Shown here piece after piece: positions 20,471 to 42,880 of a stretch of 64,000 nt of DNA. A program made the translations under genes and the position numbers. This DNA is from Gemmatimonadota bacterium (GTDB lineage: Bacteria > Gemmatimonadota > Gemmatimonadetes > Gemmatimonadales > GWC2-71-9). The DNA is taken from contig JAZDCZ010000419.1 of the NCBI GenBank assembly GCA_036679605.1, positions 192,001-256,000 on the forward strand, written 5' to 3'. How positions within the stretch are numbered: position 1 is the first letter of the stretch; every line of letters starts with the position of its first letter. The notes below the pieces were generated by a model, which was not told the origin of the DNA, ran no database searches, and worked only from the letters and a program-made list of their open reading frames with translations.

Positions 20471-20515
20471 CGGAGTGAGTAGCACCAAACCATACGGGAA
20501 TCTGGGAGACAGACC

Positions 20516-22579: not shown

Positions 22580-22628
22580 CTAGGGAACTCGTATCAGCCA
22601 CGGACTGTTTGTACTGCATAGCCATCAT

Positions 22629-23717: not shown

Positions 23718-23726
23718 GCGTGTAGC

Positions 23727-24266: not shown

Positions 24267-24306
24267 GATTCCCACCTCCTACTGACAATATTCGATATTA
24301 CGCGTC

Positions 24307-24338
24307 GATATTACGTACGATATATCGTACGTAATATC
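24307..24338. promoter_or_regulatory. Perfect 32-bp palindrome, probable PadR operator
   Basis: gatattacgtacgata|tatcgtacgtaatatc, 40 bp upstream of the padR start. Confidence 0.75.
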
Positions 24339-24379
24339 TTACAAAAAGTCAACGGCTGGTAAGTGGTGGGTACAGCTAG

Positions 24380-24781: not shown

Positions 24782-24791
24782 CAGGATTCCC

Positions 24792-25199
24792 TCAGTTACC
24801 CAGACTCATGGGCCAGTAGAAGCCCGCGTGATAAACGATGAAAAGCGCGGCGCCAGCGAGCCCGAGAGTTTTCATGAAGTGAGCCATCTCGTTCTGCTTC
24901 GCCATTGGATCGGTCTCCTTCCAGAACGGATGCATCATGAAGGCGGTCGGTATGAGGAAAATCACCAGCAGCCCCGCACCGATGAAACGATGCCATCCCA
25001 ACAGCACCGACAGTCCGCCGAGCACGATCATGAGGCCGGTCACCGGAACAGCAACCTTTGCTGCGGGTACTCCCCTGCTCTCGGCGAAGCCCGCCATCTC
25101 CTTCATGTTCATGAAGTGGCCCATGCCGCCCCCAATAAACATCATGCTGAATAGGATTCTGCCCATGAGGTGGATCCAGGGGTAAGCTTCTTCTGGCAT
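24792..25199 (-). CDS. DoxX-family membrane protein (tandem paralog)
   Basis: GRILF..GHF..GVP..HPFW..HFMKTLGLAG. Confidence 0.88.
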   Translation of the reverse strand: MPEEAYPWIHLMGRILFSMMFIGGGMGHFMNMKEMAGFAESRGVPAAKVAVPVTGLMIVLGGLSVLLGWHRFIGAGLLVIFLIPTAFMMHPFWKETDPMAKQNEMAHFMKTLGLAGAALFIVYHAGFYWPMSLGN

Positions 25200-25328
25200 T
25201 TTTTGCTCCCGTTTGCAAGAATCGCTGCATGATGCCGTAGCTTGAGCTAAATAGCAAGCGCCCTTGCGGTCAGACGCGGGAGAGAATACCGGATGGTCTT
25301 GGAAACTCGAGATGCTGCGGAGTACTGC

Positions 25329-25357
25329 TTGCGGCGCGCCCTTCTGGCGCGCCGCAA
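25329..25357 (-). terminator. 12-bp GC hairpin after the PDZ gene
   Basis: ttgcggcgcgcc-cttct-ggcgcgccgcaa just beyond stop at 25366; no clear U tract. Confidence 0.55.
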
Positions 25358-25365
25358 TATGTTCC

Positions 25366-26433: not shown

Positions 26434-26478
26434 TGTACACTCACTCCTTACTTGATCCGGCATTCCAGCCCGGACCTA

Positions 26479-27066
26479 CTAGAATCCGACGTATGCTGCC
26501 CGTCGGACCTGTGTATTAATCAACGCATCCATCAACAACAGACGTTGACGGAACAAACCTGTGAGTTGTTCTCGGGATACAACCACCTGTCGAGCTGCCG
26601 AGAGGTGTGTATCAATCATGGTTATGCGATCTTCGAGATCGGCGATCGCAAGTGCCGTCATTCCATTCACGACTCGCCCATCCATTCGAACGTCATGAAG
26701 CACACTATCCAATTGTCGTGATTGGCTGGCCAGCATCTGCAACTCGGTAACCGAATTGGGAACCGCTGCCGTTCTATGCACAAAACCATTCACGCCAACC
26801 AGCAACGCAAATGACGCCGCAGCAGCCCAGCCGGCTCTGAGCCAACCAGCTCTGCGTCGCTCTTTTTGAATGGCACGACCAACCTCCGACCAACGATCCC
26901 GCGGTGCACTGATACTCGGTAGCGCCTTGAGCGCCGCAACCCGCTGGTGGATCCGGTCTAGCTCATCTCGGCATTCAGCGCATTCGTCCACATGAGTTCG
27001 AGCGCCCAACAAGCCGTCCCCATTTCGTACATCGAGTAGCTCTTGAATTGTACAATGTCTCAACAT
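26479..27066 (-). CDS. zf-HC2 anti-sigma factor
   Basis: HVDECAEC (HxxxCxxC), TM helix; ATG overlaps the sigma stop. Confidence 0.8.
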   Translation of the reverse strand: MLRHCTIQELLDVRNGDGLLGARTHVDECAECRDELDRIHQRVAALKALPSISAPRDRWSEVGRAIQKERRRAGWLRAGWAAAASFALLVGVNGFVHRTAAVPNSVTELQMLASQSRQLDSVLHDVRMDGRVVNGMTALAIADLEDRITMIDTHLSAARQVVVSREQLTGLFRQRLLLMDALINTQVRRAAYVGF

Positions 27067-27611
27067 CACGCCTCCTCGCCGAGCATCGTTCTCAACCGCG
27101 CATGAGCACGCGAAAGTTGCGATTTCGAGAAACTCACTGTTTTCCCCATTAGCTCGGCTATCTCCTCGTGTGTGTAGCCCTCTACGTCGTGCAACCACAC
27201 CACCGCCCTGCTCGTGTCCGACAGACACTTCAATGCGTCCTCCAGATCGAGCCGGAGGCCGGATTGTCCCTCCAGCGACCATCTCCCAGCAAACTCCTCG
27301 TGCAGTTCCTCAGTATTCCGGTACTTCTCATACCTCACACGCATCAGTGCTTTGCTGGCAGCTATGCGCTTGATCCATGATGTCATGCTCCCGGCCTGGT
27401 CACCACGGAATTTTTTTATGCTGCGGCAGACCTCCAGGAAAGTTTCCTGAAGCACATCTTCCGCATCTTCCGCGGTGCGGCATATTCTCCGAGCCATTGT
27501 GTAGACCAGACCCTGATAGCTCCGATACAAGCCTTCGAGAGCTGCAAGGTCGCCGGTCTTGGCCCGGCGAATCGCCATGTCGTCGACTGCAACCAAGGAC
27601 ATTTGCGTCAT
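27066..27611 (-). CDS. ECF RNA polymerase sigma factor
   Basis: DAEDVLQETF, WIKRIA, LHDVEGYTHEEIA. Confidence 0.92.
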   Translation of the reverse strand: MTQMSLVAVDDMAIRRAKTGDLAALEGLYRSYQGLVYTMARRICRTAEDAEDVLQETFLEVCRSIKKFRGDQAGSMTSWIKRIAASKALMRVRYEKYRNTEELHEEFAGRWSLEGQSGLRLDLEDALKCLSDTSRAVVWLHDVEGYTHEEIAELMGKTVSFSKSQLSRAHARLRTMLGEEA

Positions 27612-27622
27612 GCTCGTTAAGA

Positions 27623-27651
27623 TAGATGCCTCGACCGAAAGAATAGTCGCA
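27623..27651 (-). promoter_or_regulatory. Candidate autoregulatory ECF promoter TGCGAC-N17-CATCT
   Basis: Lies directly upstream of the ECF start; single copy only. Confidence 0.3.
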
Positions 27652-27755
27652 GTTATCGCGCTACTCTGACCGGCCGTTCGAAAGCTACATAACTATATGA
27701 TAGACATACAGTTACGGTCGAATATTTGCAAGCATACGCGGGAAGTAGGCTCAAT

Positions 27756-28868
27756 TTGAAGAGAACGGACGCAAGCGACCTTTGGCGTCACCACCTCCAG
27801 GATGAGGCCGACGCCGCGTTCCTATACCGAATTCTGGCTGACGCGGAACCCACCGACAAGAGGAGTGATCTGTACCGTCGTCTGGCCGATGTCGAGGACC
27901 GGCATTCAAAGCTCTGGTGCGAGGTTCTGGAACAACATGGCCATGAGGCGCCCGTGCCAGGTCCCTCGTTCAGAGCGAGGCTGCTCGCCAAGATAGCAAC
28001 AATGTTCGGTCCCACTCTGCTGCTACCACTGCTGCTGAGAGAAGAAGGTCTCGAGGTTAAGGGATACCTCGACATGTACCGACAAAGTGAACCCGGCACT
28101 GCGCGCGACACCGCTCTCACCTTGGCAAAGGAATCAGCCGAACATGCGACGGCGCTGGGCCAGCTTTCAGATGCGGTGGGTGAGCCGTGGCACAGCACTG
28201 GGTCGGGTGGTTTTCTCCGCAACGTCATCTATGGGTTCAATGACGGGTTGACGGCTAACTTCGGCTTGGTTGCGGGTGTTATCGGAGCGGCGTTCGAGTC
28301 TCACATCGTGCTCGTGTCGGGCTTGGCAGGAATGATTGCGGATGCTCTATCGATGGGTTCCTCGGGATACTTGGCTGCGAAAACCGAACGCGAGGTTTAT
28401 GCAAACGAGATCGCGATGGAGCGCGAAGAGATTCGGCTCATGCCCGAACTCGAGGAAGAGGAACTTGCACTGCTGTACGAGGCCAAGGGTGTCGAGACCC
28501 AGCGCGCCCACGAGATGGCACACGACATTATGCGAGACCCTGAGCGCGCGCTAGCCGAAAAGGTGCGCGAAGAACTCAAAATAGGTGATGCACACACTAC
28601 ACCTGTCAACGAAGGTCTCATTACCGGTATCGCTACTGCGGTTGGAGCGTTCATACCCTTCGCTCCGTTTCTCTTCATGGAGGGTCAGGCCGCAGCGCTC
28701 ACTGCTTTCTTGCTTGCGATGACCTCGCACTTTGCCGTGGGTGCGGCAAGGAGTTTCTTCACCGGGCGCGGACTATTCAAGAGCGGCTTAGATATGTTTG
28801 TGGTCGGACTCGGCGTTGCCGTGGTGGGCTACCTGGTTGGTGACCTTGTCGCCAAGGCGTTGACCTGA
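27756..28868 (+). CDS. Rubrerythrin-like + VIT1/CCC1 iron/manganese transporter
   Basis: ExxH motifs N-terminal; RNVIYGFNDGL, ADALSMG; start approximate (27726 or 27756). Confidence 0.88.
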   Translation: MKRTDASDLWRHHLQDEADAAFLYRILADAEPTDKRSDLYRRLADVEDRHSKLWCEVLEQHGHEAPVPGPSFRARLLAKIATMFGPTLLLPLLLREEGLEVKGYLDMYRQSEPGTARDTALTLAKESAEHATALGQLSDAVGEPWHSTGSGGFLRNVIYGFNDGLTANFGLVAGVIGAAFESHIVLVSGLAGMIADALSMGSSGYLAAKTEREVYANEIAMEREEIRLMPELEEEELALLYEAKGVETQRAHEMAHDIMRDPERALAEKVREELKIGDAHTTPVNEGLITGIATAVGAFIPFAPFLFMEGQAAALTAFLLAMTSHFAVGAARSFFTGRGLFKSGLDMFVVGLGVAVVGYLVGDLVAKALT

Positions 28869-28952
28869 CTAGACCACGAGATTAACCAACCGGTCCTGAA
28901 CGTAAATCGATTTTTTCACGTCGCGACCATCCAAGGACCGGCGCACCGCATC
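28869..28952 (-). pseudogene. leuS: Displaced 3' end of leuS (84 nt, att-like direct repeat)
   Basis: 72/84 nt identical to 38248-38331; encodes DAVRRSLDGRDVKKSIYVQDRLVNLVV* vs DAVLRALDGREVRKSIYVQDRLVNLVV*. Confidence 0.9.
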
Positions 28953-28989
28953 GTGCAGTCGATCCGAAGATTGGGTTCGCTTGGTACGG

Positions 28990-29085
28990 TCACTGGAAGC
29001 AGAAGCCGAACTCAGTAACAGTATATGTGTATTGGTCACTTGCCGTACTTTCACCATCGTTTACTTCAACCTTTATCTCGGGCAC
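28990..29085 (-). pseudogene. Orphan C-terminal fragment of an Ig/PKD-like domain
   Basis: EIKVEVNDGESTASDQYTYTVTEFGFCFQ* resembles the LRLNVLDSGGADGFDQLSATVNSQAPPCLN* tail at 31782-31943. Confidence 0.4.
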
Positions 29086-29137
29086 CGCGGCCATCATGGT
29101 CCTGTCGCTGTGCAGAACGGCGGGTAGTGCGACGGCG

Positions 29138-30394
29138 TTAACCAGTGGGATCCACCACTTTCCCGATAAAGAGAATGGTCCCCGAAATCCGCTCGCGCAG
29201 CACGAAGAGGAACGGCTGGTCGATGACGAACGGCGGCGGCTCACTGATCATGCCGAAGCTGACGGACGTCACCGCCGCCGCTTCCGTGCCCACCTCGTCC
29301 ACCTTGACAAACGTCTTGTGTTGGACCGTACGGATGAAGAGCCCAGCGCCGGGAGTGATGTTGCTGAAGTCTGCCAGCGCTGCGTCGAATGCAATCCCCA
29401 TCCCCAGCGCCGAGAGCACGTCGTTCATTGTGATCTTGTACTCGAACTGGAACTTGGGCATCACCACGATCTTGTTTGCGCTGTCGACCTCGAGCCCGGC
29501 GGTCCACGCCTGCCAGCGATCGCGATCGAACGCGGCGATCACTTCGTCTAGCGTGACACCCGCTGCTGGCACCGCCGCCACCATCGTGAACGCCCCACCG
29601 CCGTACGGCATCTCGATCACGTTCGCCAGTTGGTCGCCGCTGATCCGAACGGGTACCGGGTCCGCATGCGACATGGTGGGGACCGACCTCTCCGTGCCAT
29701 CTCTTAACGTGAACGGCCGGTCGCTGGTGAGCGACTTGTCGAACTGGTTGGTCCAGTCACCCTTGAAGAACACGGCGTTGATCACGAACAGCATGGTTGA
29801 GCGATCGATGGGCCTCGGCGCGATCGAATCGATCCGTCCGTTGGTGTGATCCCTTACCCATCCATCGATAATGTCGGGCGCGTTGGGGGCGCCGAAATCC
29901 AGGGCCTCCACCTGAGCATCGAAAAAGGTGGTGGCCGCGTCCAAGAAGGTGGGGAGCACGGGGGCCTCGGGCCGATGCCATATGGAGTTGGCGAGATTGA
30001 ACGTCACCCGGCGATCCAGATTGACCAACAGGTCGATCAAGCCGCGGTAGCCGTCATTGACCTGGTCGATGGCAAGCCCCTCGAATCCCAAGGTCTTGGC
30101 CATCGAGTCTCTCGTCGCTCCGGCGGCGCCATTGTACGTCATGCCGAGCGCCATGCTCACGCTCAACGGCGAGATAAAGAGGTTTTCGTCGGGATTGGCC
30201 TGGGCATCCACCGCGCGGAACAGACGCATGGCGAAGGAATTGTCGGACTCCACCAACGCCAGCTCCGCCGCGGTCAGCTCCCGGGGCAACACTTCGATGG
30301 GTCCCATGGGTCCTAAGGAGTTGCCACCACCACCGCAGGCAACGGCGAAACCGATGACGGGCACGAACGCGATACGTTTACAGACACGCTTCAT
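29138..30394 (-). CDS. Serpin, lipoprotein
   Basis: Lipobox AVAC; NLFISPLS, NAVFFKGDW, hinge EVGTEAAAVT, FVIDQPFLF..ILFIG. Confidence 0.95.
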   Translation of the reverse strand: MKRVCKRIAFVPVIGFAVACGGGGNSLGPMGPIEVLPRELTAAELALVESDNSFAMRLFRAVDAQANPDENLFISPLSVSMALGMTYNGAAGATRDSMAKTLGFEGLAIDQVNDGYRGLIDLLVNLDRRVTFNLANSIWHRPEAPVLPTFLDAATTFFDAQVEALDFGAPNAPDIIDGWVRDHTNGRIDSIAPRPIDRSTMLFVINAVFFKGDWTNQFDKSLTSDRPFTLRDGTERSVPTMSHADPVPVRISGDQLANVIEMPYGGGAFTMVAAVPAAGVTLDEVIAAFDRDRWQAWTAGLEVDSANKIVVMPKFQFEYKITMNDVLSALGMGIAFDAALADFSNITPGAGLFIRTVQHKTFVKVDEVGTEAAAVTSVSFGMISEPPPFVIDQPFLFVLRERISGTILFIGKVVDPTG

Positions 30395-30457
30395 GATTGG
30401 GTACCTCCGTTATCAAGACAATACACACAGTCACGTAGACCTGTCGCGGTTGGCCGG

Positions 30458-31618
30458 CTATGGTGGCGTCACGGCCCACAGCCCCGCGCGGGTCCCGACG
30501 AGCAGCCGACCGTGGGCCGCATCGACCGCCGTCGCCGTCCCCGTCGCGCCCAAGGCCCCCCGGGGCACGGCGAGCGAGTCCCAACTCGCGCCGCCATTCG
30601 TCGTCCGGTACCACCCCAGGTCCGTCAGTTCCCGGAAGGTGCCGTCGGGATTCTTTTCGAATTCAAGGAACACGGTGGCCGCATAGAGCACATCGTTGAG
30701 CTCGGCGAAACCCGCCACCGCACCACGCGGACCCGCGGCACAGTCCCACGAGCCCCTTGCACCCGCCTCGTCAGATTGCATCAGCCCTAACTCGGCCCCG
30801 AGGAACAGTCGGTCTGGCACGTTGGGGGCCAGGGCGAGTGCGTTGGTCGGCGTCTCGACGACCACGCTGTTGCATGTGGGAACTCCTGCGTCCCAGGTCT
30901 CGCCCCAGTCTGTGCTAAAAACGACAAACGGAACGAAGATGTTGCCCTGCCCCGCCACCCAGAGCAGGCCTGTGCGCGCCGGATCGATCAGGATGTCCAC
31001 GTGCCACGCGCAAATGTTGAAGCTTCCGAACACGAACTGCCACGTCTCTCCGGCATCGAGCGAGCGCAGCACGCCGTGGCAGTTGCTCATGAACACCCGC
31101 TGCGCGTTGCCGGGGTCGACCTCCAGGTCGTCAACGAAGACGCGGTACGGGTTGCGGGACTCCGTCGCCAGCCCCCCGTCAAACGGCACCCACGACTCCC
31201 CCCGGTCGAAGCTGGCGAAGACCGCGGCGCTCGTTGTGTCTTCCTTGGAGCCGTTGCGAAACGTCACGCCCGCGAGGAGGCGCGGCGGGTCGGCCGGAAC
31301 ATAGAGCAGCGCCTTCGGGATGAGGTGGTTGTGCCAGGCTTGCGGACCCAGCGCCGTCCACCCGCCGTCCGACTCGAGCCGGAAGATCCCGTGGTCGTTC
31401 GTGCCCGCGAACAGTCCCCAGGGCGTTACGGCGACCTCGGCTATCCACTCCGACTCGAGCCCCAGCAACGTCCAGCAGCCGCTGTCGAGTTCCAGCGGGC
31501 ATACCTGCGAAGAAGATAGGCTATCCGAGCAGGCGGCGAACATGCCCGCCACAGAAACGACGACGACGGAGCGAACCAGCCAATCCGCCACACGGCCGGA
31601 AATGTGTTGCCGTGCCAT
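30458..31618 (-). CDS. Asp-box (BNR) beta-propeller lipoprotein
   Basis: AAGGAG RBS; lipobox FAAC; SFDRGESW, SLDAGETW, STDWGETW, TTNGGASW. Confidence 0.8.
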   Translation of the reverse strand: MARQHISGRVADWLVRSVVVVSVAGMFAACSDSLSSSQVCPLELDSGCWTLLGLESEWIAEVAVTPWGLFAGTNDHGIFRLESDGGWTALGPQAWHNHLIPKALLYVPADPPRLLAGVTFRNGSKEDTTSAAVFASFDRGESWVPFDGGLATESRNPYRVFVDDLEVDPGNAQRVFMSNCHGVLRSLDAGETWQFVFGSFNICAWHVDILIDPARTGLLWVAGQGNIFVPFVVFSTDWGETWDAGVPTCNSVVVETPTNALALAPNVPDRLFLGAELGLMQSDEAGARGSWDCAAGPRGAVAGFAELNDVLYAATVFLEFEKNPDGTFRELTDLGWYRTTNGGASWDSLAVPRGALGATGTATAVDAAHGRLLVGTRAGLWAVTPP

Positions 31619-31781
31619 ATGAGCGCTCCTTTGATGTTTAAGGATTACCGAAGCCTCACCCGCGACGGCCCGCCACCGTGCCGCCGGGGTCAACCGCCCG
31701 CACACGAACGCACCTCCTCTGTTTGAACTAACCCCATGCCCGATGGAAAGTTGCAGGGGTCCGGCGGCACCGCGGGCCGGT

Positions 31782-33489
31782 TCAGTTCAGACACGGCGGG
31801 GCCTGAGAGTTGACGGTAGCAGACAACTGATCGAACCCGTCGGCACCACCGCTATCCAACACGTTGAGCCTCAAGGTGTAACGCGACAGATCTCCCGTCC
31901 AGACGGTGACGTAACTGTCGCTCCCTATCGGAACGCCATTCCTGCCACTGATATGAGTACATTCCCGTGCCACCAGATACCGCCGAGTCATAGAAGCAGT
32001 ATTCATCCGGTGGGACCATCGTGGAACCAAAGATCGTAACATTCAGGGAAGGGGGTGGCGGGGGGTCCGGGACGCCAACGGCGCGCGCCGCGTCGAGCAC
32101 ACCGTGGCCGAGGTAATCGTCCCGCCCGCCCGCGCCCAGACCATCCGCGGTGTTGAACAGCCGATCCACGATCTGCTGATTCGTCCAGGTTGGATTCTGC
32201 TCTCGAAGCAGGGCGGCCGCGCCCGAAACGTGCGGTGTCGCCATCGAGGTGCCGCACCAACCCGAGGTTTCGTCCTCGTAGCTGTTATTGCCGACCGTGC
32301 TCAGGGCCCAAAACGGCGCCGCAAGGTCCACGTAAACGCCCTTGTTCGAAGCGACCGTTTGGGATGGATCGTTTGGATATGTGCAGGGACTGCTGCCGGC
32401 GAAGCTGCCGTCGGTTTTCACTCCCGAGACGCCGATGACATTCGTGTACTCGGCAGGGTAAAAGTTGGTGGGAGATGACTGGGCGCTGCCCCTGTTTCCG
32501 GCTGCCGCCACGAGCACGACCCCGTCGCTCCACGCCTGGGCGACAGCATTCGCCATCCCGGCGTCGAAAACAGTACCCCCCAGGCTCATGCTCAGCACAT
32601 CGAAAAAAACGCTCGCCTGGATACCAGAGATAATGTCAGTGGTGGGGCACCCGAACTGAATCGGTCCAGAAAAACAGGCGCCGTAAACGAAGACGTCGGA
32701 GGGCGCAACCCCGGGCGCGGCGCCTACCGCTCCGATGCTGTTGTTGCGCGCGGTGAAGATGCCTAGAACGTGGGAGCCGTGCCAGAACGGACCGTCATCG
32801 CAGCCGCCCTCGTTTCCCGCGCAATTGGCGAGTGGCACAAGCGGAAGGTCCTGGTGGCCCCGGTCGTGCCCGGTGTCGATGATCTGAATCTTGGCGGTGG
32901 CACCGGTCGCGCTGTCCCACGCCTCTGGGGCGCGCACGAGATCCATGCCCCATGGTATCGTCTGACCGTTCAGCGATGCCCTCCCGAACGCCTTGATAGG
33001 CGCCTCCACGCCCTGCACAGACAACCGCTGGAGCGGTTCGATATAGTCCACCAGCGGATGGTCGCGCAGAAGCGTAGCCGTCCCAGCCGGCAACAGAACG
33101 TGCGCAGCCCCCATGAACCAGTAGAACTCAATGACCGTGACGCCCCGCTGGGCCAGGACCGCAAGGGCAGCGTCGATCGTGCCCCGGGGAATCGCCTCGC
33201 GCCGCCCGGTCTCGAGCGCACGCGGTGAGGCCGGGGTTTTGAACGCGATCACGGCATGGCCGTCTTCCTCGGCGATCGCCTGCTCCAGTGCGACCGCACT
33301 GGTGTCCCAGGGGCGGGGCTCGGGTGGCAGGTCGATCGTGACGGCCGGGACATCCTGTACCTGAGCTGCTGGCATGCCGGAGAGTCGTGCCGCTACGTCG
33401 CTGTCCGCAATAGGCGGATTCGGCAGATCGGAACATGCCGTCAGTACACTGAGCGCCATGAGCGTGGCGCAGGCGGAACTCCTTACCAT
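31782..33489 (-). CDS. S8 subtilisin-like lipoprotein protease with frameshifted C-terminal Ig/PKD-like domain (as sequenced, ORF stops at 31852)
   Basis: GGAGG RBS, lipobox LTAC, IDTG, HGSHV, AAAGN, GTSMATPHV, poly-Pro linker; frame change at ~31944. Confidence 0.9.
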
Positions 33490-33570
33490 AGTACACCTCC
33501 TTGTGATGAAAGGCACCCGAATCGCCATAATGCTCGGTCAGATGGGCGACGACGATTCTCATGCCTAGCA

Positions 33571-33601
33571 TACAGGGGTCCTGAACACGCCAAAGGTTAC
33601 A
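33571..33601 (-). promoter_or_regulatory. Island ECF promoter motif, copy in front of the S8 gene
   Basis: TGTAACCTTT-ggcgtgttcagga-CCCCTGTA on minus strand. Confidence 0.8.
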
Positions 33602-33792
33602 CGCCAAATACGATCACTTTTGCACACACGACTCAAGTTGTTGCTTTGCAGCAAGTTACGTGTCATGTTCGCGAACTCGAATAGCTCCTCGGCCACGGAA
33701 CGGTCAGCTGAACGCCCGCTCGAGATCGAAGAGACCAGGAACCTGGCCGGCGGCTCACAATCGCACCGCGCACCATCAACTGGATCTTCGCA

Positions 33793-33823
33793 TGTAACCT
33801 TTGCCGTGTTGAACGCCCCTGTA
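33793..33823 (+). promoter_or_regulatory. Island ECF promoter motif, copy in front of the peptide gene
   Basis: TGTAACCTTT-gccgtgttgaacg-CCCCTGTA. Confidence 0.8.
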
Positions 33824-33870
33824 CTGAAGACAGGTGGTTGACGAGAGGCACTCAACACGGAGGATTCCTC

Positions 33871-34089
33871 ATGCAAGTTCCACTACGTAGACTGATACTT
33901 GTCGCTGGTGCCGCGGTCGCTCTGACGGCCATACCCTTGGCGGTCACAGAGTCTGAAAACCGGGTCTCGCTCGGTGTCAGTGACGCATGCGCTCAGGGTG
34001 GTTTCTGCTGTCGCCACGAACAGGGTTCGCTGTGCCCCAGTAGCATACCGGACGGGCAGCCCAAGGGTGACTACACGCCTTGTGGCTAG
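33871..34089 (+). CDS. Small secreted Cys-rich peptide (72 aa)
   Basis: GGAGG RBS; hydrophobic leader; C-terminal DACAQGGFCCRHEQGSLC..TPCG; own promoter motif. Confidence 0.8.
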   Translation: MQVPLRRLILVAGAAVALTAIPLAVTESENRVSLGVSDACAQGGFCCRHEQGSLCPSSIPDGQPKGDYTPCG

Positions 34090-34149
34090 TTAGCTACACT
34101 GATCCGACGTTGAGTTCGGGTACGATAAAAGCTGAGTATCACCAATCGC

Positions 34150-35265
34150 ATGGGGGCAGTTTTCATGCAATGTAGGTGCACTCTCCGCCGGGTCGGTCTC
34201 GCGTGGAGCCTTTCATTGTTAGCGCTGCTCACCCATGCGTGCGGCAGCGAGTCAACCAGCGGGCTACGGTACGGACCGGCTGAACTCGATCACGCGGCCG
34301 TTGGGGTCATTGATGTGAAGAGTAGGACCCTCTTCGAGTCGGACACCCTCGCGCTTCCCTCTGACATAGCGCTCGTAGGCGACAACGTGGTCGTCATAGA
34401 CAATGCCAACGAACCCGCCCTATTCGTTGTAGACAGAACGAGTGGAGAACTGCTGCGTGCGATCGGGAGGCGTGGAGACGGCCCTGGCGAGTTCCGGCAG
34501 CCCTGGACTCTCGACGCTGTTTCGGGTAGCACATCGGAGGTGTGGGTCTACGACTTGGGATTGGGTAGGCTCACAAAGTTGGATGTAACCACCTCTGAGG
34601 ACGCCGCAAGCAGCCGGATCGTTAACCTTGGGAGCAACGGCGCTACAACGGGTCCGATATGGACCGATGCCAACACGATCGTGAGCCTGGGACTCTTTGC
34701 GACCGGACGCCTGGCCGTGTTCAACGTGGACGGCGAGCGGACGGGCACCTTTGGAGTCGTCCCGCTCGGCCCGTCGACGGTCCCGGCAACGGTGAAGCAG
34801 CACGCCTATCAGGCAACACTGGTTCCACATCCCGAGCGACACCTAATGGCAGCGGTCACGAGACACGCCGGCCGCATCGAGTTATATCGGTCCGACGGCT
34901 CGACCGTCGCCATGCTCGACGGCCCGCTGCCCTTCGAGCCCCGCTACACCGTTGGTTCGAATGCGCGCGCAGCGGTGCTGCGAACCGGAGACGACCTGCG
35001 ATTTGGTTATATCGACGGAGCGGGCTCTAACAAATACATCTTCGCACTGTTCTCCGGCAGGACACGGGAGGGATTCCCCGGGCGTGCAAACTTCGCTAGG
35101 TTCGTACACGTATTCGATTGGAAAGGAACCTTCCAGAAAGCGCTGCGCCTGGACCACGACGTGCTGAGCATCGCCATAGACAGGGGGTCAACGACTCTGT
35201 ACGCCGTTACGCACGATCCGACACCGGCAATACTGAGCTACTCGTTATCCATGTTCGTACCGTAG
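34150..35265 (+). CDS. 6-bladed beta-propeller lipoprotein (BF3164/TolB-like)
   Basis: Lipobox THAC; IGRRGDGPGEF; YIFALFSG; VHVFDWKG. Confidence 0.8.
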   Translation: MGAVFMQCRCTLRRVGLAWSLSLLALLTHACGSESTSGLRYGPAELDHAAVGVIDVKSRTLFESDTLALPSDIALVGDNVVVIDNANEPALFVVDRTSGELLRAIGRRGDGPGEFRQPWTLDAVSGSTSEVWVYDLGLGRLTKLDVTTSEDAASSRIVNLGSNGATTGPIWTDANTIVSLGLFATGRLAVFNVDGERTGTFGVVPLGPSTVPATVKQHAYQATLVPHPERHLMAAVTRHAGRIELYRSDGSTVAMLDGPLPFEPRYTVGSNARAAVLRTGDDLRFGYIDGAGSNKYIFALFSGRTREGFPGRANFARFVHVFDWKGTFQKALRLDHDVLSIAIDRGSTTLYAVTHDPTPAILSYSLSMFVP

Positions 35266-35290
35266 GGTTTTCTGGGTACATGCAGCTCGT

Positions 35291-37453
35291 TTAGGAACCG
35301 TCGTCTGCCACATTCACAGCGGTAGGCGCGGTTAGAGCCTCGAGCACGCGCACGATTTCGTCCAAAGAGTTCTCGGACAGCCGTATGCGACTCGACTTGT
35401 CCAGCACCAGGTAAAGCGGTGTCTCCCACAGACCGAGCGCGTCGCGTGCCTTCCCATCCACATGAAAGACTCTCGGTGCGGACGGGTGCTCCTGAACGAA
35501 ACGGTTGAGAGCTAGGGACTGTGACTCCGCCGTTAATATCAACACGCGAACGCCGCGCGGTTCATAACGGGCAGTGACTTGCTGTAAGCGCGGCAGTTCA
35601 CTCAGACACGGGGCGCACAACCAGGACCAGAACGCCACGAGCGTAACTTGGCCACCCGTGAGTTCGTCAAGTCGATGACTGGCACCCGCCGAGTCGGTCA
35701 ACTCCACACCACCACGCACAAAGGTGTTACTCGTGCCGCCGAGAACGCGCTCGTACATCTCGTCTCGTGCGACCCTTGTCAGCTCTGTCCATCGAGCGCC
35801 GTTCACGAGGCCGGTCGCCAGCGCCGCAAGCGAATCCCGGGCAGTAGTCGTGGTATTCGGGTCGACCGCCAGTCTGGCCAACATGCCAACCGCACCGGCC
35901 GTATCGGCAATGCCGAGCCTTACCTCGGCCGATACTCCAAAGACCTCCGTATCCCATCCGGTCGCCGCCGCCTGGTCCAGAGCGTCGAGACCGGCCTCGG
36001 TATCGCCCAACTGCACGAGCGCCCTACCTAGCGGTGCGAGGACTCGGCCACCCTCCGCCTCGTCGTAGCGCCGCTGCTCGCCGATGGTGCGAGTCAGAGG
36101 CCGTCTCCAACCGGCATCGGTGTCAGTGCGTGCCAGCTCATCACGCAGCCGCTCTACAGCGACCCTTCTCAATTCCGGCAGCTCGGCCAGTTGCTTCGCT
36201 ACGGCAAGTGCCGCCCACGGTTTCAGCGCCACGCGGCGGTCGGCCCATCGCAGTATCGCGTCTGGGTCTCCCGCCCGCAGTGCCACAGAAAGTCCCATCC
36301 GAGGCAGTTGAAAGGAGACTGCGCCAACTTCTTGCCACAGACCCTCCAGTTCCCGCAGCGCTCCATCGCGATCGCTCCCATGCGCCGCGATGATCCGAAA
36401 GACACGTTGTTGCACTGCCTGAGGATGGCCCGGTGCTTCAGTTAGCAGCCGATCGCGCCAATAATCGACCCTCCCCGGATCTTGCTCTGCGATGAATCCC
36501 AGCCAGTATAGTCCCGCCAACGTGTCGCCGCTAAGCGAAATGTCATTGGCAAACCGGCTATGCAACTCCTCATAGCGCGCGCTCCAACGTCCGGAGAAAT
36601 CGGTCATGCCGCGCGATCGGGATAAACTTTTCTCAAACCCCGCTAGTCGCGACCAGGCATCGGGATCGTCGGGATATACCTCGGTGGCCCGCCTCGCAGC
36701 TTCCAGACCTCCTTGCCAGTTTCGTCCGCTCAAATCGTTTTGTTGCTGCACCAACGCCCGATAATCCGGCTCGTCGCCATTGAAGACCAGAAGCTCCCAC
36801 AACGCACCACGGTTGCTGTCAACGCGCGCACCCAGCGTATCCTCCACCGCGAATACCGCGTACACCACCGAGTCGGGAAGCTGAACGCTGCCCTCGAATC
36901 TCCTGCGTCCGACTTTCTCCAGTTGAGCCACCACAATCTGTCGGGCGCCGGGATCGTACTCCCGATCGGCAGCCGTCCTGTAGCGAGCGCGGAGTACCAG
37001 GCGAGCTTCGCCCGCGAGCATCGAGGTACTGCGGTACTCCACAGCAATCAGATCGCCGCGCTCGGGCTTCTCGGGTGTCAAGATCAACTCTCCCGACACC
37101 CGCTCGGCCCCCAAGTCCGGAAGCGAGCGAACCAGGAGAGCGCCTGCGCCCACCAGGGCAACCAGCGCGGCGGCTATCATGCCCAGTCGTTTGGGCAGCG
37201 CCGGAAACGGGTCGGACAGCGGCAAAATCACCCGCTCCCCGGCCGCGCGTCTCGCCAGCACGCGTTGCAGGATTGCGGCAGGCGGTTTCTGTGTTGGAAT
37301 TGATCGGGCCTGCTCATCCAGAGCCTGAATCGATGCCACCGTGTTGCGGCACGGCAGGCAAGCGGCCAAATGCTCGGCTACCCGACTACGTCTCTTGGTG
37401 GATAATTCGCCGTCGACGAAACCATGCAGTTCTGAACGAGAGAGGTGTCTCAT
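35291..37453 (-). CDS. zf-HC2 anti-sigma fused to TPR-like region and TlpA-type thioredoxin domain
   Basis: MRHLSRSELHGFVDGEL..HLAACLPC, TM, helical repeats, C-terminal FWSWLCAPCLSELP..ETPLYLVLD. Confidence 0.8.
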   Translation of the reverse strand: MRHLSRSELHGFVDGELSTKRRSRVAEHLAACLPCRNTVASIQALDEQARSIPTQKPPAAILQRVLARRAAGERVILPLSDPFPALPKRLGMIAAALVALVGAGALLVRSLPDLGAERVSGELILTPEKPERGDLIAVEYRSTSMLAGEARLVLRARYRTAADREYDPGARQIVVAQLEKVGRRRFEGSVQLPDSVVYAVFAVEDTLGARVDSNRGALWELLVFNGDEPDYRALVQQQNDLSGRNWQGGLEAARRATEVYPDDPDAWSRLAGFEKSLSRSRGMTDFSGRWSARYEELHSRFANDISLSGDTLAGLYWLGFIAEQDPGRVDYWRDRLLTEAPGHPQAVQQRVFRIIAAHGSDRDGALRELEGLWQEVGAVSFQLPRMGLSVALRAGDPDAILRWADRRVALKPWAALAVAKQLAELPELRRVAVERLRDELARTDTDAGWRRPLTRTIGEQRRYDEAEGGRVLAPLGRALVQLGDTEAGLDALDQAAATGWDTEVFGVSAEVRLGIADTAGAVGMLARLAVDPNTTTTARDSLAALATGLVNGARWTELTRVARDEMYERVLGGTSNTFVRGGVELTDSAGASHRLDELTGGQVTLVAFWSWLCAPCLSELPRLQQVTARYEPRGVRVLILTAESQSLALNRFVQEHPSAPRVFHVDGKARDALGLWETPLYLVLDKSSRIRLSENSLDEIVRVLEALTAPTAVNVADDGS

Positions 37454-37458
37454 CACCA

Positions 37459-38013
37459 CTAGTCTCCTATGATCCTTCGGAGCATGTCTTTGGCGCGGTA
37501 CAGCCTGACCTTGGACGTTCCGGTGGTTATACCAACCATTCTTGCGATCTCCGAATGTGCATAGCCTCCGATCACCCTCATCACAAAGACAATACGCAGG
37601 GATTCCGGAAGATTCGCGATTGCTTCCTCGATCATCATGCGGTCCACGTGCCCCGGAGGCTCCTCTGCGGTTTCGCTCGGCGAGAGAACTTCCAGAGGAA
37701 CCTCGGCTCGCCGCTTTGACGAGCGATTTCTCCGATACGCGGTTCTGAATGCCACCGTCTTGATCCACCCTTCCAGACTGCCATGTCCTTTGTATCCGTG
37801 CAAAGCCTCCGCCAGGTCCATGAACACATCTTGAACGACATCCATGGCGTCTTCGTGCGATTTCGTCAGTCGCACCGCTATACCAAAAACCATTGCTCCA
37901 AACCGCTCAAACAGCTCCGCGATGGCCTCCGGCTCGCCCGACCGCGCCCGGCTCAGGAAAGCGGGTGATTCGAACCGGTCGTTCGCGTCGGTCACCGACA
38001 GCGACGCCCCCAT
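37459..38013 (-). CDS. ECF RNA polymerase sigma factor (island)
   Basis: DAMDVVQDVF, WIKTVA, GYAHSEIA, SKVRLYRA. Confidence 0.92.
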   Translation of the reverse strand: MGASLSVTDANDRFESPAFLSRARSGEPEAIAELFERFGAMVFGIAVRLTKSHEDAMDVVQDVFMDLAEALHGYKGHGSLEGWIKTVAFRTAYRRNRSSKRRAEVPLEVLSPSETAEEPPGHVDRMMIEEAIANLPESLRIVFVMRVIGGYAHSEIARMVGITTGTSKVRLYRAKDMLRRIIGD

Positions 38014-38035
38014 GGAGGCAACGCGGGCCCTATAC

Positions 38036-38066
38036 TACAGGGGCCACGAAGGAGCAAAAGGTTACA
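38036..38066 (-). promoter_or_regulatory. Island ECF promoter motif, autoregulatory copy
   Basis: TGTAACCTTT-tgctccttcgtgg-CCCCTGTA, 22 bp upstream of the sigma ATG. Confidence 0.8.
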
Positions 38067-38247
38067 TGACGTCAATTTCATCGACCGGCTAGAATACGCA
38101 TAAGTCCCCTGTCTTCAAGTCTTTAGCCGCATTGTACCGGCGATCGGCGATCGACAGAACCAACGCCATTTCGTATGCGACTATCAGATTGGGACAGGTT
38201 GAGATTTCCGGCTCCCTCTGGCGAGAAAACCGCTGGCTACTCTAGTA

Positions 38248-40692
38248 CTAGACTACGAGATTAACCAACCGATCTTGCACGTAGATCGATTTTCTTACTT
38301 CCCGACCATCCAATGCCCGGAGCACCGCATCATCTTCCAAAGCGAACTCGAGCACCTGGTTCTCGGGTAGTCCACGTGTTACGTGAAGTCGAGACCTAAC
38401 CTTACCGTTAACCTGAACCACCACCACCACATCCTCCGCATCGGCAAGCGCGGCGTCAGATACAGGCCATTTTGCGTCGAACACGCTGTCGTCATGCCCC
38501 AAGCGCTCCCAGGATTCCTCAGAGAAATGTGGAGCAAACGGTGCCAACATCACGATCAGCGGTTCCACCATATCGCGATCTACAGAAGCATCGGAATTGT
38601 CTTTCGCACCGCTAACGTCACGCAGCAAATTCAGGTATTCCATGAGGCCGGCGATCGCGGTGTTGTAGCGCAACTCCTCTGTTGCATCCGTCACCTTGCG
38701 GATCGTTTGATGCAATTTCTGTAGCGCTCGACCACTCTTCGCCTCGGGACGTGGCGAGGCCTGCGACACCAAGCCCCATACTTTGTCCAGAAAGCGACGC
38801 ATTCCCGAAATTCCGTCGTCTCTGAAATCGCCGCCTTCCAAGTAGGGTCCGAGGAACATCAGGTACATCCGGAACGTGTCCGCTCCCCATTTCGACAGAT
38901 AATCATCAGGGATGACGGTGTTGCCGCGGGATTTCGACATCTTGGCCCCATCCTTAACGATGGTTCCGTGGGCCCGAAATTTAGGGAATGGTTCTTCGAA
39001 CGTTATGTGTCCGAGATCGTGCAGCGCCATCGTTATGAATCGCGAGTACATGAGATGGAGCACCGCGTGTTCGTTACCACCTATATACGATTGTACGGGC
39101 AGCCATTTTTTCGTCAACTCCGTGTCGAATGGCCGATCCCGAAATTCCGTCGACGGATACCGCAAGAAATACCAAGAGCTATCGAGAAACGTGTCCGAAA
39201 CGTCGGTTTCGCGCGTGGCTTCTTCTCCACAACTAGGACACGGTACCTTGTACCACTCTTCGTGCCGCGCAAGTGGTGATTCGCCCGTCTCGTCGGGTTT
39301 GAAATCTTCGATCAACGGTAGCAGCACTGGAAGTTCTGAGTCGGGAACCGGTACCGTACCACATTCCTTGCAATAGATTACCGGAATGGGCGGTCCCCAG
39401 TAACGCTGCCGTGAGATGCACCAGTCGTGTAGCCTATACTGAATCTTAGCCTTGCCAAGTTGCTTTTCCTCCAGCCACTCGCTGACTGATTTCACGGCCT
39501 CGCTACATGCCATTCCATCGAACCGTCCACTATTCACGATCGTGCCGTCCCAGCCACTGAAGGGAAGGTCCGTGGGTTCCTTAGGCTCTACAACCTGCCT
39601 TATCTCCAGGCCAAAGCCCTTGGCAAATTCGTAGTCGCGTTCGTCATGTGCCGGCACTGCCATGATGGCGCCCGTTCCGTACTCCATTAGCACATAGTCC
39701 GCGATCCATATCGGAACGGATTCACCTGTCGCCGGATTCCTGGCGTACGTGCCCGTAAAAACCCCGGTCTTGATCTTGTCCCCAACCCTTCGCGACACCA
39801 GGTCTTTCTGTATTGCGCTTCGGCGGTATTCGTTGACTTCTCTCTGCTGCTCTGCCGCCGTCACCACGTCCACCATCGAATGCTCCGGTGCAAGAACTAG
39901 GTATGTAGCACCAAACACCGTATCCGGCCGAGTCGTATAGACCCGGATCGGCGTTCCGGATGGAGTCTCGAACACAAGTTCAGCACCTTCGGAGCGTCCA
40001 ATCCAGTTCTGTTGCATCCTCCGGGTCGACTCGGACCAATCGAGCCTGCTGAGACTGTCTAGCAGGCGCTGCGCGTACTTGGTAATGGTGAAGAACCATT
40101 GATCGAGCATGCGCTGATGTACACGCGTTTCCAAATGACGCTCACAATATCCGTCAATCACCTGTTCGTTGGCCAGCACGGTTTTGCACTCCGGACACCA
40201 GTTGACCGGCGCTTTTTTCTTCACCGCCAAGCCGGCTTTGAAAAGCTGCAGAAAGATCCACTGTGTCCAGCAATAGTACTCGGGATCAGTGGTGGTCAGC
40301 TCATGGTCCCAGTCGAACATGAGACCCATTCGCTTCAACTGCTGCCGGAACCGTGAGATGTTGTCCGGTATCAGTTTGTTGGGGTGAGTGTTCACCTTCA
40401 GGGCGAAATTCTCCGAGTGAATCCCGAAGGCATCGAATCCTATCGGCTCGAACACATCCCACCCTTGAAGCCGCTTGAACCGGCCGTGGATGTCCACACC
40501 TACAAACGCAAAGACATTGCCAACGTGAAGTCCCTCCGCCGATGGGTAGGGAAACATCATGAGGTTGTAGTATGGCCGCTCGGCTTTACGTAGGTCTACC
40601 GAATGCGTGCGGTGCTCCTCCCACCGACCGCGCCATTTCTCCTCAACGGCCTGGGGGTCGTAGTCAGCTGTCAATTCTTCCCTATCGGACAT
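38248..40692 (-). CDS. leuS: Leucine--tRNA ligase
   Basis: MFPYPS..LHVGN (HIGH), TTRPDT editing domain, SRQRYWG, KMSKS, VQVNGKVR. Confidence 0.98.
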   Translation of the reverse strand: MSDREELTADYDPQAVEEKWRGRWEEHRTHSVDLRKAERPYYNLMMFPYPSAEGLHVGNVFAFVGVDIHGRFKRLQGWDVFEPIGFDAFGIHSENFALKVNTHPNKLIPDNISRFRQQLKRMGLMFDWDHELTTTDPEYYCWTQWIFLQLFKAGLAVKKKAPVNWCPECKTVLANEQVIDGYCERHLETRVHQRMLDQWFFTITKYAQRLLDSLSRLDWSESTRRMQQNWIGRSEGAELVFETPSGTPIRVYTTRPDTVFGATYLVLAPEHSMVDVVTAAEQQREVNEYRRSAIQKDLVSRRVGDKIKTGVFTGTYARNPATGESVPIWIADYVLMEYGTGAIMAVPAHDERDYEFAKGFGLEIRQVVEPKEPTDLPFSGWDGTIVNSGRFDGMACSEAVKSVSEWLEEKQLGKAKIQYRLHDWCISRQRYWGPPIPVIYCKECGTVPVPDSELPVLLPLIEDFKPDETGESPLARHEEWYKVPCPSCGEEATRETDVSDTFLDSSWYFLRYPSTEFRDRPFDTELTKKWLPVQSYIGGNEHAVLHLMYSRFITMALHDLGHITFEEPFPKFRAHGTIVKDGAKMSKSRGNTVIPDDYLSKWGADTFRMYLMFLGPYLEGGDFRDDGISGMRRFLDKVWGLVSQASPRPEAKSGRALQKLHQTIRKVTDATEELRYNTAIAGLMEYLNLLRDVSGAKDNSDASVDRDMVEPLIVMLAPFAPHFSEESWERLGHDDSVFDAKWPVSDAALADAEDVVVVVQVNGKVRSRLHVTRGLPENQVLEFALEDDAVLRALDGREVRKSIYVQDRLVNLVV

Positions 40693-40752
40693 AGTGCGCG
40701 AAATCTAGCACGGCTTGCTCCTCCAGGAAGGCTCACCTACTTTGCCCTACGA

Positions 40753-42819
40753 ATGTCTGGCGGATCGATAGAACTCCGGAAGCGGGTCATTGTTGTTGGT
40801 GTCCCGATCGCCATCGTTGCAACCGTCCTCGGTGCATACATGACGAGCCGGGCTGTTGCGCGCGAGTTCGACAGGACTATTGAGACCAACTTGCTGGAGA
40901 CCGCCGACCGGGCGGCGCGGACTGTAGAGGCATATATGACCGAGCGGCTCTCTGACATGAGAGACCTCGCAACATTGCCTGCAGTTATCGCAGCCACAGG
41001 GACAGGCGGGGACATGGCGGAACGACTCAGACTCGATCGGCTCACGACCACTGCGTTAGAAGAGCGTTTCGCAGAAACTTCGGGTCTTGTCCCCGACCCA
41101 CGACTCCAGAGTTACTTCACACAGTTTGCCGATTCCGGTGATTTTTCTGAGATCACAGTGACGGAGAAACGTGGCTTCACCGTACTGCGTACGAATCCGG
41201 GCTCGCAGTTTGTGCGTTCAGGTGAGCAGTGGTGGGAACGGCTCATCGAAGCCGGCGACTACCAGAGTCCACCAACGTACGACCAATCATCGGGGCGCGT
41301 TCAACTCATCCTTGCCCGAGCCATCGCGGACCCCCAGTCGGGAGATCTGGTCGGGACCGTACAGTCGATACTCGATCTATCAGGGCTCACCAGGCTGCTT
41401 GGGGCAGATAGCAAGACGGTCGGCTCCAGTGTTCAGGTTGTTGACTCGTCGGGCAAGGTTGTGATCTCCACCGATGCGGCGGTAGCCTTTGGCTCAGTCA
41501 TTCAGTCAACGGCGATCGTGAGCGACCAAATTCAAGTGGCTCGCACCGCTTCGGTAACTGGAATCGTCGTTTCCGCGCCAGTCGGCACGAATCCGTGGTC
41601 AGTCGTGGTAGAGAGACGTCGAGAGGTAGCACTGGCAGCGGCCAGATCAGTCCGTGATGCCATCTACCTGACAGCGGGTGCGGGTCTCATCGTCGCGATA
41701 ATATTGATCGCCTGGCTCACAGACTGGCTATCCCGTCGAGTGACCAGGCCAATTCGCCTGGCGGGCATCGTGGCCGGGCGCGTGGCTGACGGAGATCTCT
41801 CGATTTCTCCCCAAGCAAGTGGCGCCGGCTCCGAAGAGGTGAACAAGCTACTAGAGTCCATCCACGAAATGGTCGGCGCTCTCCAGCGCTTGGTGGGAGA
41901 AATACGTTCATCGTCTCACGAGTCAGCCGCTATGGCTCAGCAGATTTCCGCTAGCACCGAGGAAATGTCTGCTTCGACTCAGCAAATGGCGGACACCTGC
42001 CAGGATTTGTCTGAGCAGGCCACTGTACAGGCAGACCTTGCGCGGCGCTCCGCCGACGACGCCAACCGAATCTTGAGCATCTCGAGTACTCTAGCGGATG
42101 GATCGAACGTCGCCGCCGAGCGTAGTACCGCGATCAATCGCACGGCTGATGAGCACCGAGAGCACCTCATCGAAGGAAGTGCAAAACTGGCTCAGTTGGC
42201 CAGTGACCTCGAGCGTGGTGCAGCCGATGCGGAGAAGCTTGCGGAGCTGTCGGAACACGTTCAACGGTTCGTGACTCAGGCCAAGGCAACGGCAGCTCAA
42301 ACCAATATGTTGGCGTTGAATGCGGCCATCGAGGCTTCACGTGCATCGCACGGGGAGGAGCGGGGATTCGCGGTCGTGGCCGACGAGGTACGCAAGCTCG
42401 CCTCTCAGGCGGCACAAGCGGCGACTGACACATCCCAGATCGTTCACAAGGTACAAGGGACCGTTCAGGATATCCGCGAGCGACTGACGCGTCTCGCCGA
42501 GGCAAGCTCCGCTGTACGAGAAGTAGCCGAGGCTGCTGCTAGAGCCCTCGAGGAGGTGGCTGGAGCCACCGCGGAATCGAGTGCCTGGAGCGATGAGATC
42601 TCGCACGCGGCAGGCGACGTCAAGAAACTAGTGGAGGAGATTACTGGACGGCTCGAGTCGATCGCCTTGGGAACGGAATCCATCGTGGCGGCATCACAGC
42701 AAATCGCCGCATCGGCAGAAGAGCAAAGCGCATCCACTGAGGAAATCGCCGGCTCTGCAGCACAACTCGCCAGTGTTTCCGATCACCTCACACTAACCGT
42801 GAACTCGTTTCGCCTGTAG
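40753..42819 (+). CDS. Methyl-accepting chemotaxis protein (Cache-HAMP-MA)
   Basis: Two TMs, HAMP, QTNMLALNAAIEA..RGFAVVADEVRKLA. Confidence 0.92.
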   Translation: MSGGSIELRKRVIVVGVPIAIVATVLGAYMTSRAVAREFDRTIETNLLETADRAARTVEAYMTERLSDMRDLATLPAVIAATGTGGDMAERLRLDRLTTTALEERFAETSGLVPDPRLQSYFTQFADSGDFSEITVTEKRGFTVLRTNPGSQFVRSGEQWWERLIEAGDYQSPPTYDQSSGRVQLILARAIADPQSGDLVGTVQSILDLSGLTRLLGADSKTVGSSVQVVDSSGKVVISTDAAVAFGSVIQSTAIVSDQIQVARTASVTGIVVSAPVGTNPWSVVVERRREVALAAARSVRDAIYLTAGAGLIVAIILIAWLTDWLSRRVTRPIRLAGIVAGRVADGDLSISPQASGAGSEEVNKLLESIHEMVGALQRLVGEIRSSSHESAAMAQQISASTEEMSASTQQMADTCQDLSEQATVQADLARRSADDANRILSISSTLADGSNVAAERSTAINRTADEHREHLIEGSAKLAQLASDLERGAADAEKLAELSEHVQRFVTQAKATAAQTNMLALNAAIEASRASHGEERGFAVVADEVRKLASQAAQAATDTSQIVHKVQGTVQDIRERLTRLAEASSAVREVAEAAARALEEVAGATAESSAWSDEISHAAGDVKKLVEEITGRLESIALGTESIVAASQQIAASAEEQSASTEEIAGSAAQLASVSDHLTLTVNSFRL

Positions 42820-42880
42820 GACCAACATGGGGATCCCTCCCGCAGGACCTTACTGACCTCACCCAGACTGGTTGGCCGAA

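Follow-up and report, generated by a model that had tools for sequence, protein, structure and literature searches.

Why does leuS, a single-copy gene for an essential aminoacyl-tRNA synthetase, have two versions of its 3′ end lying 9.4 kb apart? The question arises from a 64,000-nucleotide (nt) stretch of contig JAZDCZ010000419.1 in the assembly of an uncultured Gemmatimonadota bacterium (GCA_036679605.1, 6.7 Mb), where the end of leuS converges on a VIT1-family gene. This whole stretch is referred to here as the window, and all coordinates are window positions unless another contig or genome is named. Our analysis indicated that, in the lineage of this genome, the single leuS received an insertion of 9,295 bp (28953-38247; the block) at a point 84 nt upstream of its stop codon. 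A version of these 84 nt from a leuS of the same genus-level lineage came in with this DNA, and LeuS therefore stayed full length, while the native 84 nt now lie 9.4 kb farther downstream, still in contact with VIT1. Among the routes by which the block could have entered, site-specific recombination of the att type, with an integrase that was lost or acted in trans, is the most likely, although we hold this view tentatively.

The duplication was evident in a repeat search of the window, which yielded a direct repeat of 85 nt (28868-28952 and 38247-38331) whose copies are 86% identical and 9379 nt apart from start to start. Within this repeat, 28869-28952 and 38248-38331 represent two versions of the last 27 codons plus the stop codon of leuS. 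Translated from the minus strand, the first of them (the orphan copy) reads DAVRRSLDGRDVKKSIYVQDRLVNLVV and the second (the current copy) DAVLRALDGREVRKSIYVQDRLVNLVV, each followed by a stop; the current copy is the end of an 814-amino-acid open reading frame (ORF) identified as leuS by both Pfam and NCBIfam (leuS_bact, E 4e-275). No second leuS was found in the assembly, and the 84-nt sequence is present in exactly two copies in the 6.7 Mb. A chance repeat is unlikely, since a blastn match of this kind has an E value of 4e-20 within the genome. The initial annotation of this locus, made from the sequence alone, reported 72 identities in 84 nt, and 12 bases were indeed found to differ when the two ends were compared from the stop codon inward. 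These differences are distributed over codon positions 1, 2, and 3 as 1, 2, and 9, and if the three positions are used equally, nine or more of 12 would fall at third positions with a probability of 0.004. The third-position count of the initial annotation was thus correct, but its seven synonymous changes became eight (with four nonsynonymous ones) upon Nei-Gojobori path counting on the 84 nt. The copies are 14% apart and differ at 38% of the synonymous sites and 7% of the nonsynonymous sites, which argues that both evolved as coding sequence.

At the left end of the repeat, the TGA stop of VIT1 (28866-28868) is followed directly by the orphan stop (CTA on the plus strand, 28869-28871), so that the gap of zero noticed earlier is real. 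The 9,295 bp between the copies contain six genes. The longest exact match between the two leuS ends is 17 nt, and a 10-nt identical stretch, GCACCGCATC, lies at the inner repeat edge (28943-28952 and 38322-38331). Homology between the copies spans from this 10-nt block to the stop codon plus 1 nt. In addition, a perfect 12-nt palindrome, TCTAGTACTAGA, at 38241-38252 bridges the right end of the block and the leuS stop and is absent at the orphan copy.

To distinguish the native end from the imported one, both were compared with G001, the only other species of the same genus in our comparison set, whose LeuS ends with DAVRRSLGGRDIKKSIYVQDRLMNLVV. The orphan copy is identical to G001 at all four residues that distinguish the two ends, and of the 12 variable bases, 8 have the orphan state in G001, 3 the state of the current copy, and 1 neither. 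Each of the 27 residues of the orphan copy occurs either in the current copy or in G001; it thus has no private amino acid change, and third codon positions account for all three of its private base changes. In the current copy, eight base changes are private, including all four amino acid replacements. The replaced residues are at sites that are variable among 27 LeuS tails of the family, and the invariant V18, L22, and V26 as well as the near-invariant K14, D20, and R21 are intact in both copies. Judged by sequence, the orphan is the native leuS end, displaced by the insertion, because it matches the G001 state at four of four residues, shows no private amino acid change, and abuts VIT1. Moreover, since it lacks private residue changes and has changed at third positions only, it evolved within a working gene until recently and has hardly decayed since. 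These results bear out three earlier suggestions: that the copies are two alleles and not a gene with a decayed duplicate, that the orphan, which occupies the place of the leuS end in G001 and numerous family members, is the ancestral end, and that the present LeuS C terminus, which carries the derived states, arrived with the block.

The imported end retains features, such as DAV, LDGR, and SIYVQDRL, that none of the compared tails from outside this genus (g1) has, and a congener, rather than a distant donor, was therefore its source. A mosaic test of leuS against G001 gave a third-position identity of 47% throughout, a saturated level that cannot locate a donor tract. In a search of 200 family genomes, the best match was again G001 (69% amino acid identity over the last 100 residues); a LeuS scan of metagenome contigs returned at best 68% amino acid identity, and a protein search with the C-terminal 280 amino acids, restricted to lengths of 154 to 490, returned at best 71%. 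The nearest named LeuS fragments are labelled Gemmatimonadota.

If the block was inserted, relatives without the cargo should have leuS next to VIT1, a comparison that the initial annotation had proposed and that gave the expected result. Positions 3-9981 of G001 match 19102-28954 of the window and positions 9896-18000 match 38248-46357; the single leuS end of G001 maps to both window copies, and G001 has nothing that corresponds to 9.3 kb of the window. VIT1 and leuS are convergent in this genome, with their stops 13 nt apart. An empty site was also found in a much closer relative, represented by a 2191-nt contig from run X1 (sediment, different study) that is ca. 90% identical to the window and goes directly from 38333 to 28953; the leuS end of this contig aligned on the orphan copy, which may reflect aligner extension and is not counted as evidence. 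When VIT1 with 1.5-kb flanks was used as the anchor in 19 other genomes, leuS was directly convergent in seven and separated from VIT1 by one gene in another, and in the other 11 no leuS was seen within the flank or the contig edge was reached. With leuS as the anchor and up to 12 kb of downstream sequence in 40 family genomes, VIT1 was located within 100 nt in 16; four genomes had 1.9 to 2.9 kb of unrelated genes in between, one gave a weak distant match, and 19 showed no VIT1 in the stretch. Nucleotide self-searches of these 12-kb regions in the 40 genomes detected no duplicated leuS end, the only matches being 14-nt ones attributable to chance.

Several other features of the VIT1-leuS neighborhood were recorded. 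Five family genomes (loci L124, L136, L140, L159, and L027) have 1.2 to 2.9 kb of unrelated genes between VIT1 and leuS, with neither a duplicated gene end nor a recombinase, which marks this gap as a site where genes have been gained repeatedly. The genes that fill such gaps are ordinary, including a prfC-like (RF3-like) gene, an alpha/beta hydrolase gene, a piece of a TonB receptor gene, a ThiF plus PNPOx pair, and a beta-lactamase-family gene. Beside VIT1 and leuS, a gene for a sigma factor of the extracytoplasmic function (ECF) group (27066-27611, minus strand) is conserved across the family (loci L121 to L160); it is different from the sigma gene of the block, the two sharing 30 to 38% amino acid identity, and where VIT1 is missing, this conserved neighbor directly follows leuS on the same strand. 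At loci L020 (genome G004) and L023 (genome G012), the VIT1-leuS spacers of 85 to 95 nt are built from 7-nt tandem units (GCGGATT and GGGGGAC types) in inverted arrays, which would be predicted to form long hairpins between the convergent genes.

An arrangement of this kind could also result from a chimera of two strains or organisms, and the assembly gives some reason for caution: it is a bin of 434 contigs with an estimated contamination of 6.3%, and its 6.7 Mb are about twice the size of most relatives (2 to 4.4 Mb). Run X3, in which 97% of the sampled words were present, probably represents the source sample. Independently built X3 contigs cover 27000-31818 and 37189-38884 with 0 differences and cross both junctions, and the word depth is even, at ca. 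18 across VIT1, the leuS end, and the left part of the block, which has no paralogue; this support comes from a separate assembly but not from a separate sample. A direct joint of 28953 to 38333 is absent from the X3 contigs, but since contigs drop rare variants, this is silent on excision. A chimera would further require two joins without shared words, the longest exact match being 17 nt, and both flanks are collinear with G001. We therefore consider a chimera, which the initial annotation had named as a refuting possibility, highly improbable. An equally poor candidate is the duplication of the leuS end in place at the time of insertion, for example, as a very long target duplication, with the unused copy decaying thereafter. 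This explanation agrees with the fact that the copies are direct repeats exactly flanking the inserted DNA. It is contradicted by the distribution of changes: the copy out of use shows no decay, having only its three third-position changes and no private residue, the working copy holds all four replacements, and the 14% distance with 38% of synonymous sites different means that both copies evolved as coding sequence.

We favor, tentatively, att-type recombination as the route of entry. In this scenario, the block in its circular state would have an attP site made of a mimic of the leuS end, and a crossover with leuS would take place in the 10-nt identical GCACCGCATC at the inner repeat edge. 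The orphan copy would then represent attL and the working gene end attR, and what remains would be an integrase-less element resembling a cis-mobilizable element (CIME), whose recombinase either acted in trans or was later lost. Several observations argue for this route. The homology begins exactly at the 10-nt identical block and ends 1 nt past the stop codon, a layout like that of the Escherichia coli element e14; integrase-less elements that keep attL and attR are a described class, the CIMEs; the GC content of the block is in the top 3.4% of windows; and 35 matches to the tyrosine recombinase family (PF00589) are present in the genome, 0 of them on the contig of the window (C357), and could have acted in trans. 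That the block is a mobile island is nevertheless something we infer, not a demonstration.

A series of findings weighs against such an element. As the initial annotation had remarked, there is no recombinase gene in the block: neither the ORFs of the block nor the 55 ORFs of the whole 64 kb matched any recombinase or transposase family of Pfam or NCBIfam. No recombinase remnant was detected in the block either, and the stretches outside genes (185, 63, 146, 620, 25, and 234 nt) leave no room for a gene of recombinase size. Searches with the block gave no match in a phage record collection and, in plasmid records, only a 49-nt motif of the peptidase S8 gene in six records (five from Streptomyces and one from Embleya); nothing else in the block resembles a mobile element. 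The genome contains no sibling element with the same mimic of the leuS end, and repeated arm-type words in the reconstructed attP arms (including 28953-29137) were not above those in shuffled sequences. For a repeat with 86% identity, 10 matching bases in a row at its edge have a chance expectation of ca. 0.2, so that the identical core could arise by chance in about 1 case in 5. Finally, the nearest relatives of the cargo are paralogues in the same genome and ca. 90%-identical contigs from related sediment populations, and exchange among congeners therefore fits as well as a mobile element does. A RecA-type single crossover seems unlikely, a point in favor of the att-type route: RecA-dependent recombination needs longer identity, and the longest exact match of 17 nt in copies of 86% identity is probably both too short and too diverged. 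A possible route, to which we give somewhat less credence than to att-type recombination, is homology-facilitated illegitimate recombination, in which a linear fragment from a congener that had the block directly after its leuS was taken up, the donor leuS anchored on the resident leuS, and the nonhomologous far end joined 84 nt before the resident stop. No recombinase is required here, which explains why recombinase genes are entirely absent, and the duplicate would owe its length to the accidental position of the join. The origin of both parts of the imported DNA is in line with this route, since the imported end is congeneric, being 86% identical to the native end with residues found in genus g1 only, and the closest relatives of the cargo reside in the same genome and in ca. 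90%-identical populations. Furthermore, a contig of run X2 shows that DNA of 38184-38247 follows leuS in at least one relative. On the other hand, illegitimate events usually delete recipient DNA rather than duplicate it, and no sampled genome has the block next to leuS, the 40 family loci showing only the distant sigma gene (30 to 38% amino acid identity) near leuS. The X1 contig differs from the window at 103 of 832 positions upstream of the repeat versus 140 of 1389 on the VIT1 side; there is thus no clear excess of divergence as expected from a long donor tract, an argument that is weak and silent on a short tract. The mechanism and the orphaned 3′ ends that it leaves ("C-terminal displacement") are described in PMC5361080, where such events are also rated orders of magnitude rarer than ordinary homologous recombination, a rarity that speaks against this route. 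Att-type and illegitimate recombination predict the same structure.

We also scanned the 135 contigs of at least 8 kb for other gene-end duplicates flanking 1.5 to 80 kb. Four other loci were obtained, none of which is a clear second case of a displaced gene end. Three were rejected, as C282 has tandem DUF4876 paralogues, C419 has paralogous PD40/kinase genes, and at C296 the short copy is upstream of the gene. In the fourth, on C276 (81957-82004 and 92179-92226), a 1009-codon AAA_16 gene has a second copy of its final 48 nt 10.2 kb downstream, with 85% identity; this copy is in frame to a stop, there is no recombinase in between, and G001 has no orthologue, and C276 may, by its sequence layout, be a second displaced gene end. 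Among the tyrosine recombinase matches of the genome are runs of three adjacent ones on C340, C271, and C381. A limited literature search found no mention of leuS as an integration target, which does not show that leuS is unreported as one.

The features of the locus are listed in Table 1.

Table 1. Features at the leuS-VIT1 locus (window coordinates)
Feature	Position	Strand	Basis
VIT1-family gene, native convergent neighbor of leuS	27726..28868	+	Pfam VIT1, E 8e-58
Orphan leuS end (last 27 codons + stop), native by sequence, displaced	28869..28952	-	Repeat, translation, G001 match
Noncoding left end of inserted block	28953..29137		No similarity to G001 or rest of genome
Serpin gene	29138..30394	-	Pfam Serpin, E 7e-103; GC3 0.81
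BNR/Asp-box repeat protein gene	30458..31705	-	Weak BNR match, below cut-off; GC3 0.82
Subtilase (peptidase S8) gene, first of S8-BNR-serpin operon	31852..33528	-	Pfam Peptidase_S8, E 4e-30
ECF-type promoter motif GTAACCTTT-N13-CCCCTGTA (predicted), upstream of S8 operon	33571..33600	-	
Same ECF-type motif (predicted promoter), facing propeller gene	33794..33823	+	
TolB-like six-bladed beta-propeller gene	34150..35265	+	Pfam TolB_like, E 6e-17
Anti-sigma factor gene (zf-HC2, TPR, AhpC/redoxin domains)	35291..37768 as listed ORF	-	Pfam
ECF sigma factor gene	37459..38013	-	Pfam Sigma70_r2 + r4_2; NCBIfam sigma70-ECF
Same ECF-type motif (predicted promoter), upstream of sigma gene	38036..38065	-	
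Hairpin-bearing element of ca. 50 nt, downstream of current leuS stop; block right end	38184..38235		
Current leuS end (last 27 codons + stop), came with block	38248..38331	-	8 private base changes, 4 private residues
leuS body, sole copy in genome	38332..40692	-	leuS_bact, E 4e-275; collinear with G001

The gene content of the block looks like a self-contained ECF sigma regulon, with genes for a sigma factor, its anti-sigma factor, and a propeller protein and an operon for the S8 protease, the BNR protein, and the serpin. The motif GTAACCTTT-N13-CCCCTGTA has three matches in the whole genome, all of them in the block: one upstream of the sigma gene, one upstream of the S8 operon, and one directed at the propeller gene. 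The sigma gene is thus probably autoregulated, the promoters being assigned from the position and repetition of the motif only. For the anti-sigma gene, the true start probably lies near 37453, since the listed ORF overlaps the sigma gene; only residues 106 to 825 of this ORF align to its 719-amino-acid paralogue on contig C422. Base composition varies within the block. Its GC content is 0.616 versus a genome mean of 0.582 (standard deviation, 0.017, in windows of the block size), placing it in the upper tail of 9.3-kb windows given above, and the GC content at third codon positions (GC3) is 0.81 to 0.82 in the serpin and BNR genes, 0.66 to 0.70 in the sigma module, and ca. 0.63 in the flanks.

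The relatives of the cargo differ from gene to gene. Serpin homologues are patchy in the order, being present in 14 of 41 genomes including the host at 39 to 59% amino acid identity, with none found in G001, and in the five relatives' loci examined, no BNR or S8 homologue was found within 1.5 kb of the serpin gene. The propeller protein is 89% identical in amino acids to a paralogue encoded by C422, a contig that shares a 114-nt overlap with the end of the contig containing the window. There, C422:7819-12133 (locus L031) is a paralogous propeller/anti-sigma/sigma module corresponding to 33854-38182 of the window. The identity between the two is ca. 90% over 33916-37214 and falls abruptly to 62 to 74% beyond 37215, which suggests recombination among paralogous modules. 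Weaker paralogues are present on C294, C13, and C212, and contigs of X1 and X2, from related sediment populations, are ca. 90% identical to parts of the cargo. The X2 contig with ca. 91% identity to leuS continues with the 64 nt after the current stop (38184-38247) and then has 150 letters that are off the window. These 64 nt include the hairpin-bearing element at the right end of the block, copies of which are found at C212:132993-133037 and C178:40533-40584. This dispersed element has a conserved 10-bp hairpin stem in the leuS sense, which begins 18 nt past the current leuS stop, and might act as a terminator, although it has no U tract and its fold is not better than those of shuffled sequences.

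In structure, the locus belongs to a known kind, the replacement of a gene end by an inserted block. In E. coli, phage 21 occupies the 3′ end of icd. For the E. coli prophage e14, which also resides in the 3′ end of icd, PMC13626634 describes the icdC pseudogene as the leftover fragment. As at leuS, the insertion is inside the 3′ end of a housekeeping gene, an alternative end is supplied that differs mostly by synonymous and conservative changes, and the original end is left at the far side. The difference is that e14 has its own integrase and excises upon SOS induction, whereas the leuS block has no recombinase, nothing phage-like, and the cargo of a sigma regulon. CIMEs, according to PMC5704250, keep attL and attR after the integration genes are lost. 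They resemble the block in that direct repeats flank them, with the target gene completed by one of the two, and in lacking genes for integration and transfer, with the reservation that at leuS the role of the repeats as att sites is our reading of them. CIMEs, however, are recognized by kin among integrative and conjugative elements (ICEs) or integrative and mobilizable elements (IMEs) with the same att site, and no such relative was found in this genome, nor a duplicated leuS end in any of the 40 family genomes. The third comparison is with the C-terminal displacement proposed, via homology-facilitated illegitimate recombination, for rhs and type VI secretion system (T6SS) effector loci in PMC5361080, which cites Jackson et al. 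2009 for rhs. At those loci, as here, a new 3′ end and downstream genes are inserted, the old 3′ end is orphaned downstream, and there is no recombinase. However, they encode polymorphic toxins under diversifying selection with arrays of tips, whereas leuS is a single-copy synthetase gene with one orphan and a near-equivalent allele. The cargo, in turn, matches ECF sigma/anti-sigma modules with autoregulated promoters, to judge from the Sigma70_r2/r4 domains, the zf-HC2 anti-sigma factor, and the shared motif; this likeness concerns the cargo, not the insertion.

The layout itself has long been known, and what is unusual here is the target leuS, the lack of a recombinase, and the tidy regulon cargo. 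The locus provides a clean, polarized example of the entry of a block via the end of an essential gene, in which the old end is kept, relatives show the empty site, and the source is a congener, in a poorly studied lineage. It is also a pitfall for island finders that require an integrase. Being without a recombinase, it could serve as a test case for how frequent integrase-less islands are; these may arise by the decay of integrative elements or by homology-anchored illegitimate recombination. One reading, which we put forward as possible though with less than even confidence, is that this is a recombinase-free C-terminal displacement of an essential aminoacyl-tRNA synthetase gene, in which DNA from a congener, paired through leuS homology, brought a complete 9.3-kb sigma-factor regulon and swapped the last 27 residues of LeuS for those of the donor. 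If this is true, the process proposed for rhs and T6SS toxin loci would be a general route, with housekeeping genes serving as landing pads for gene gain among related species.

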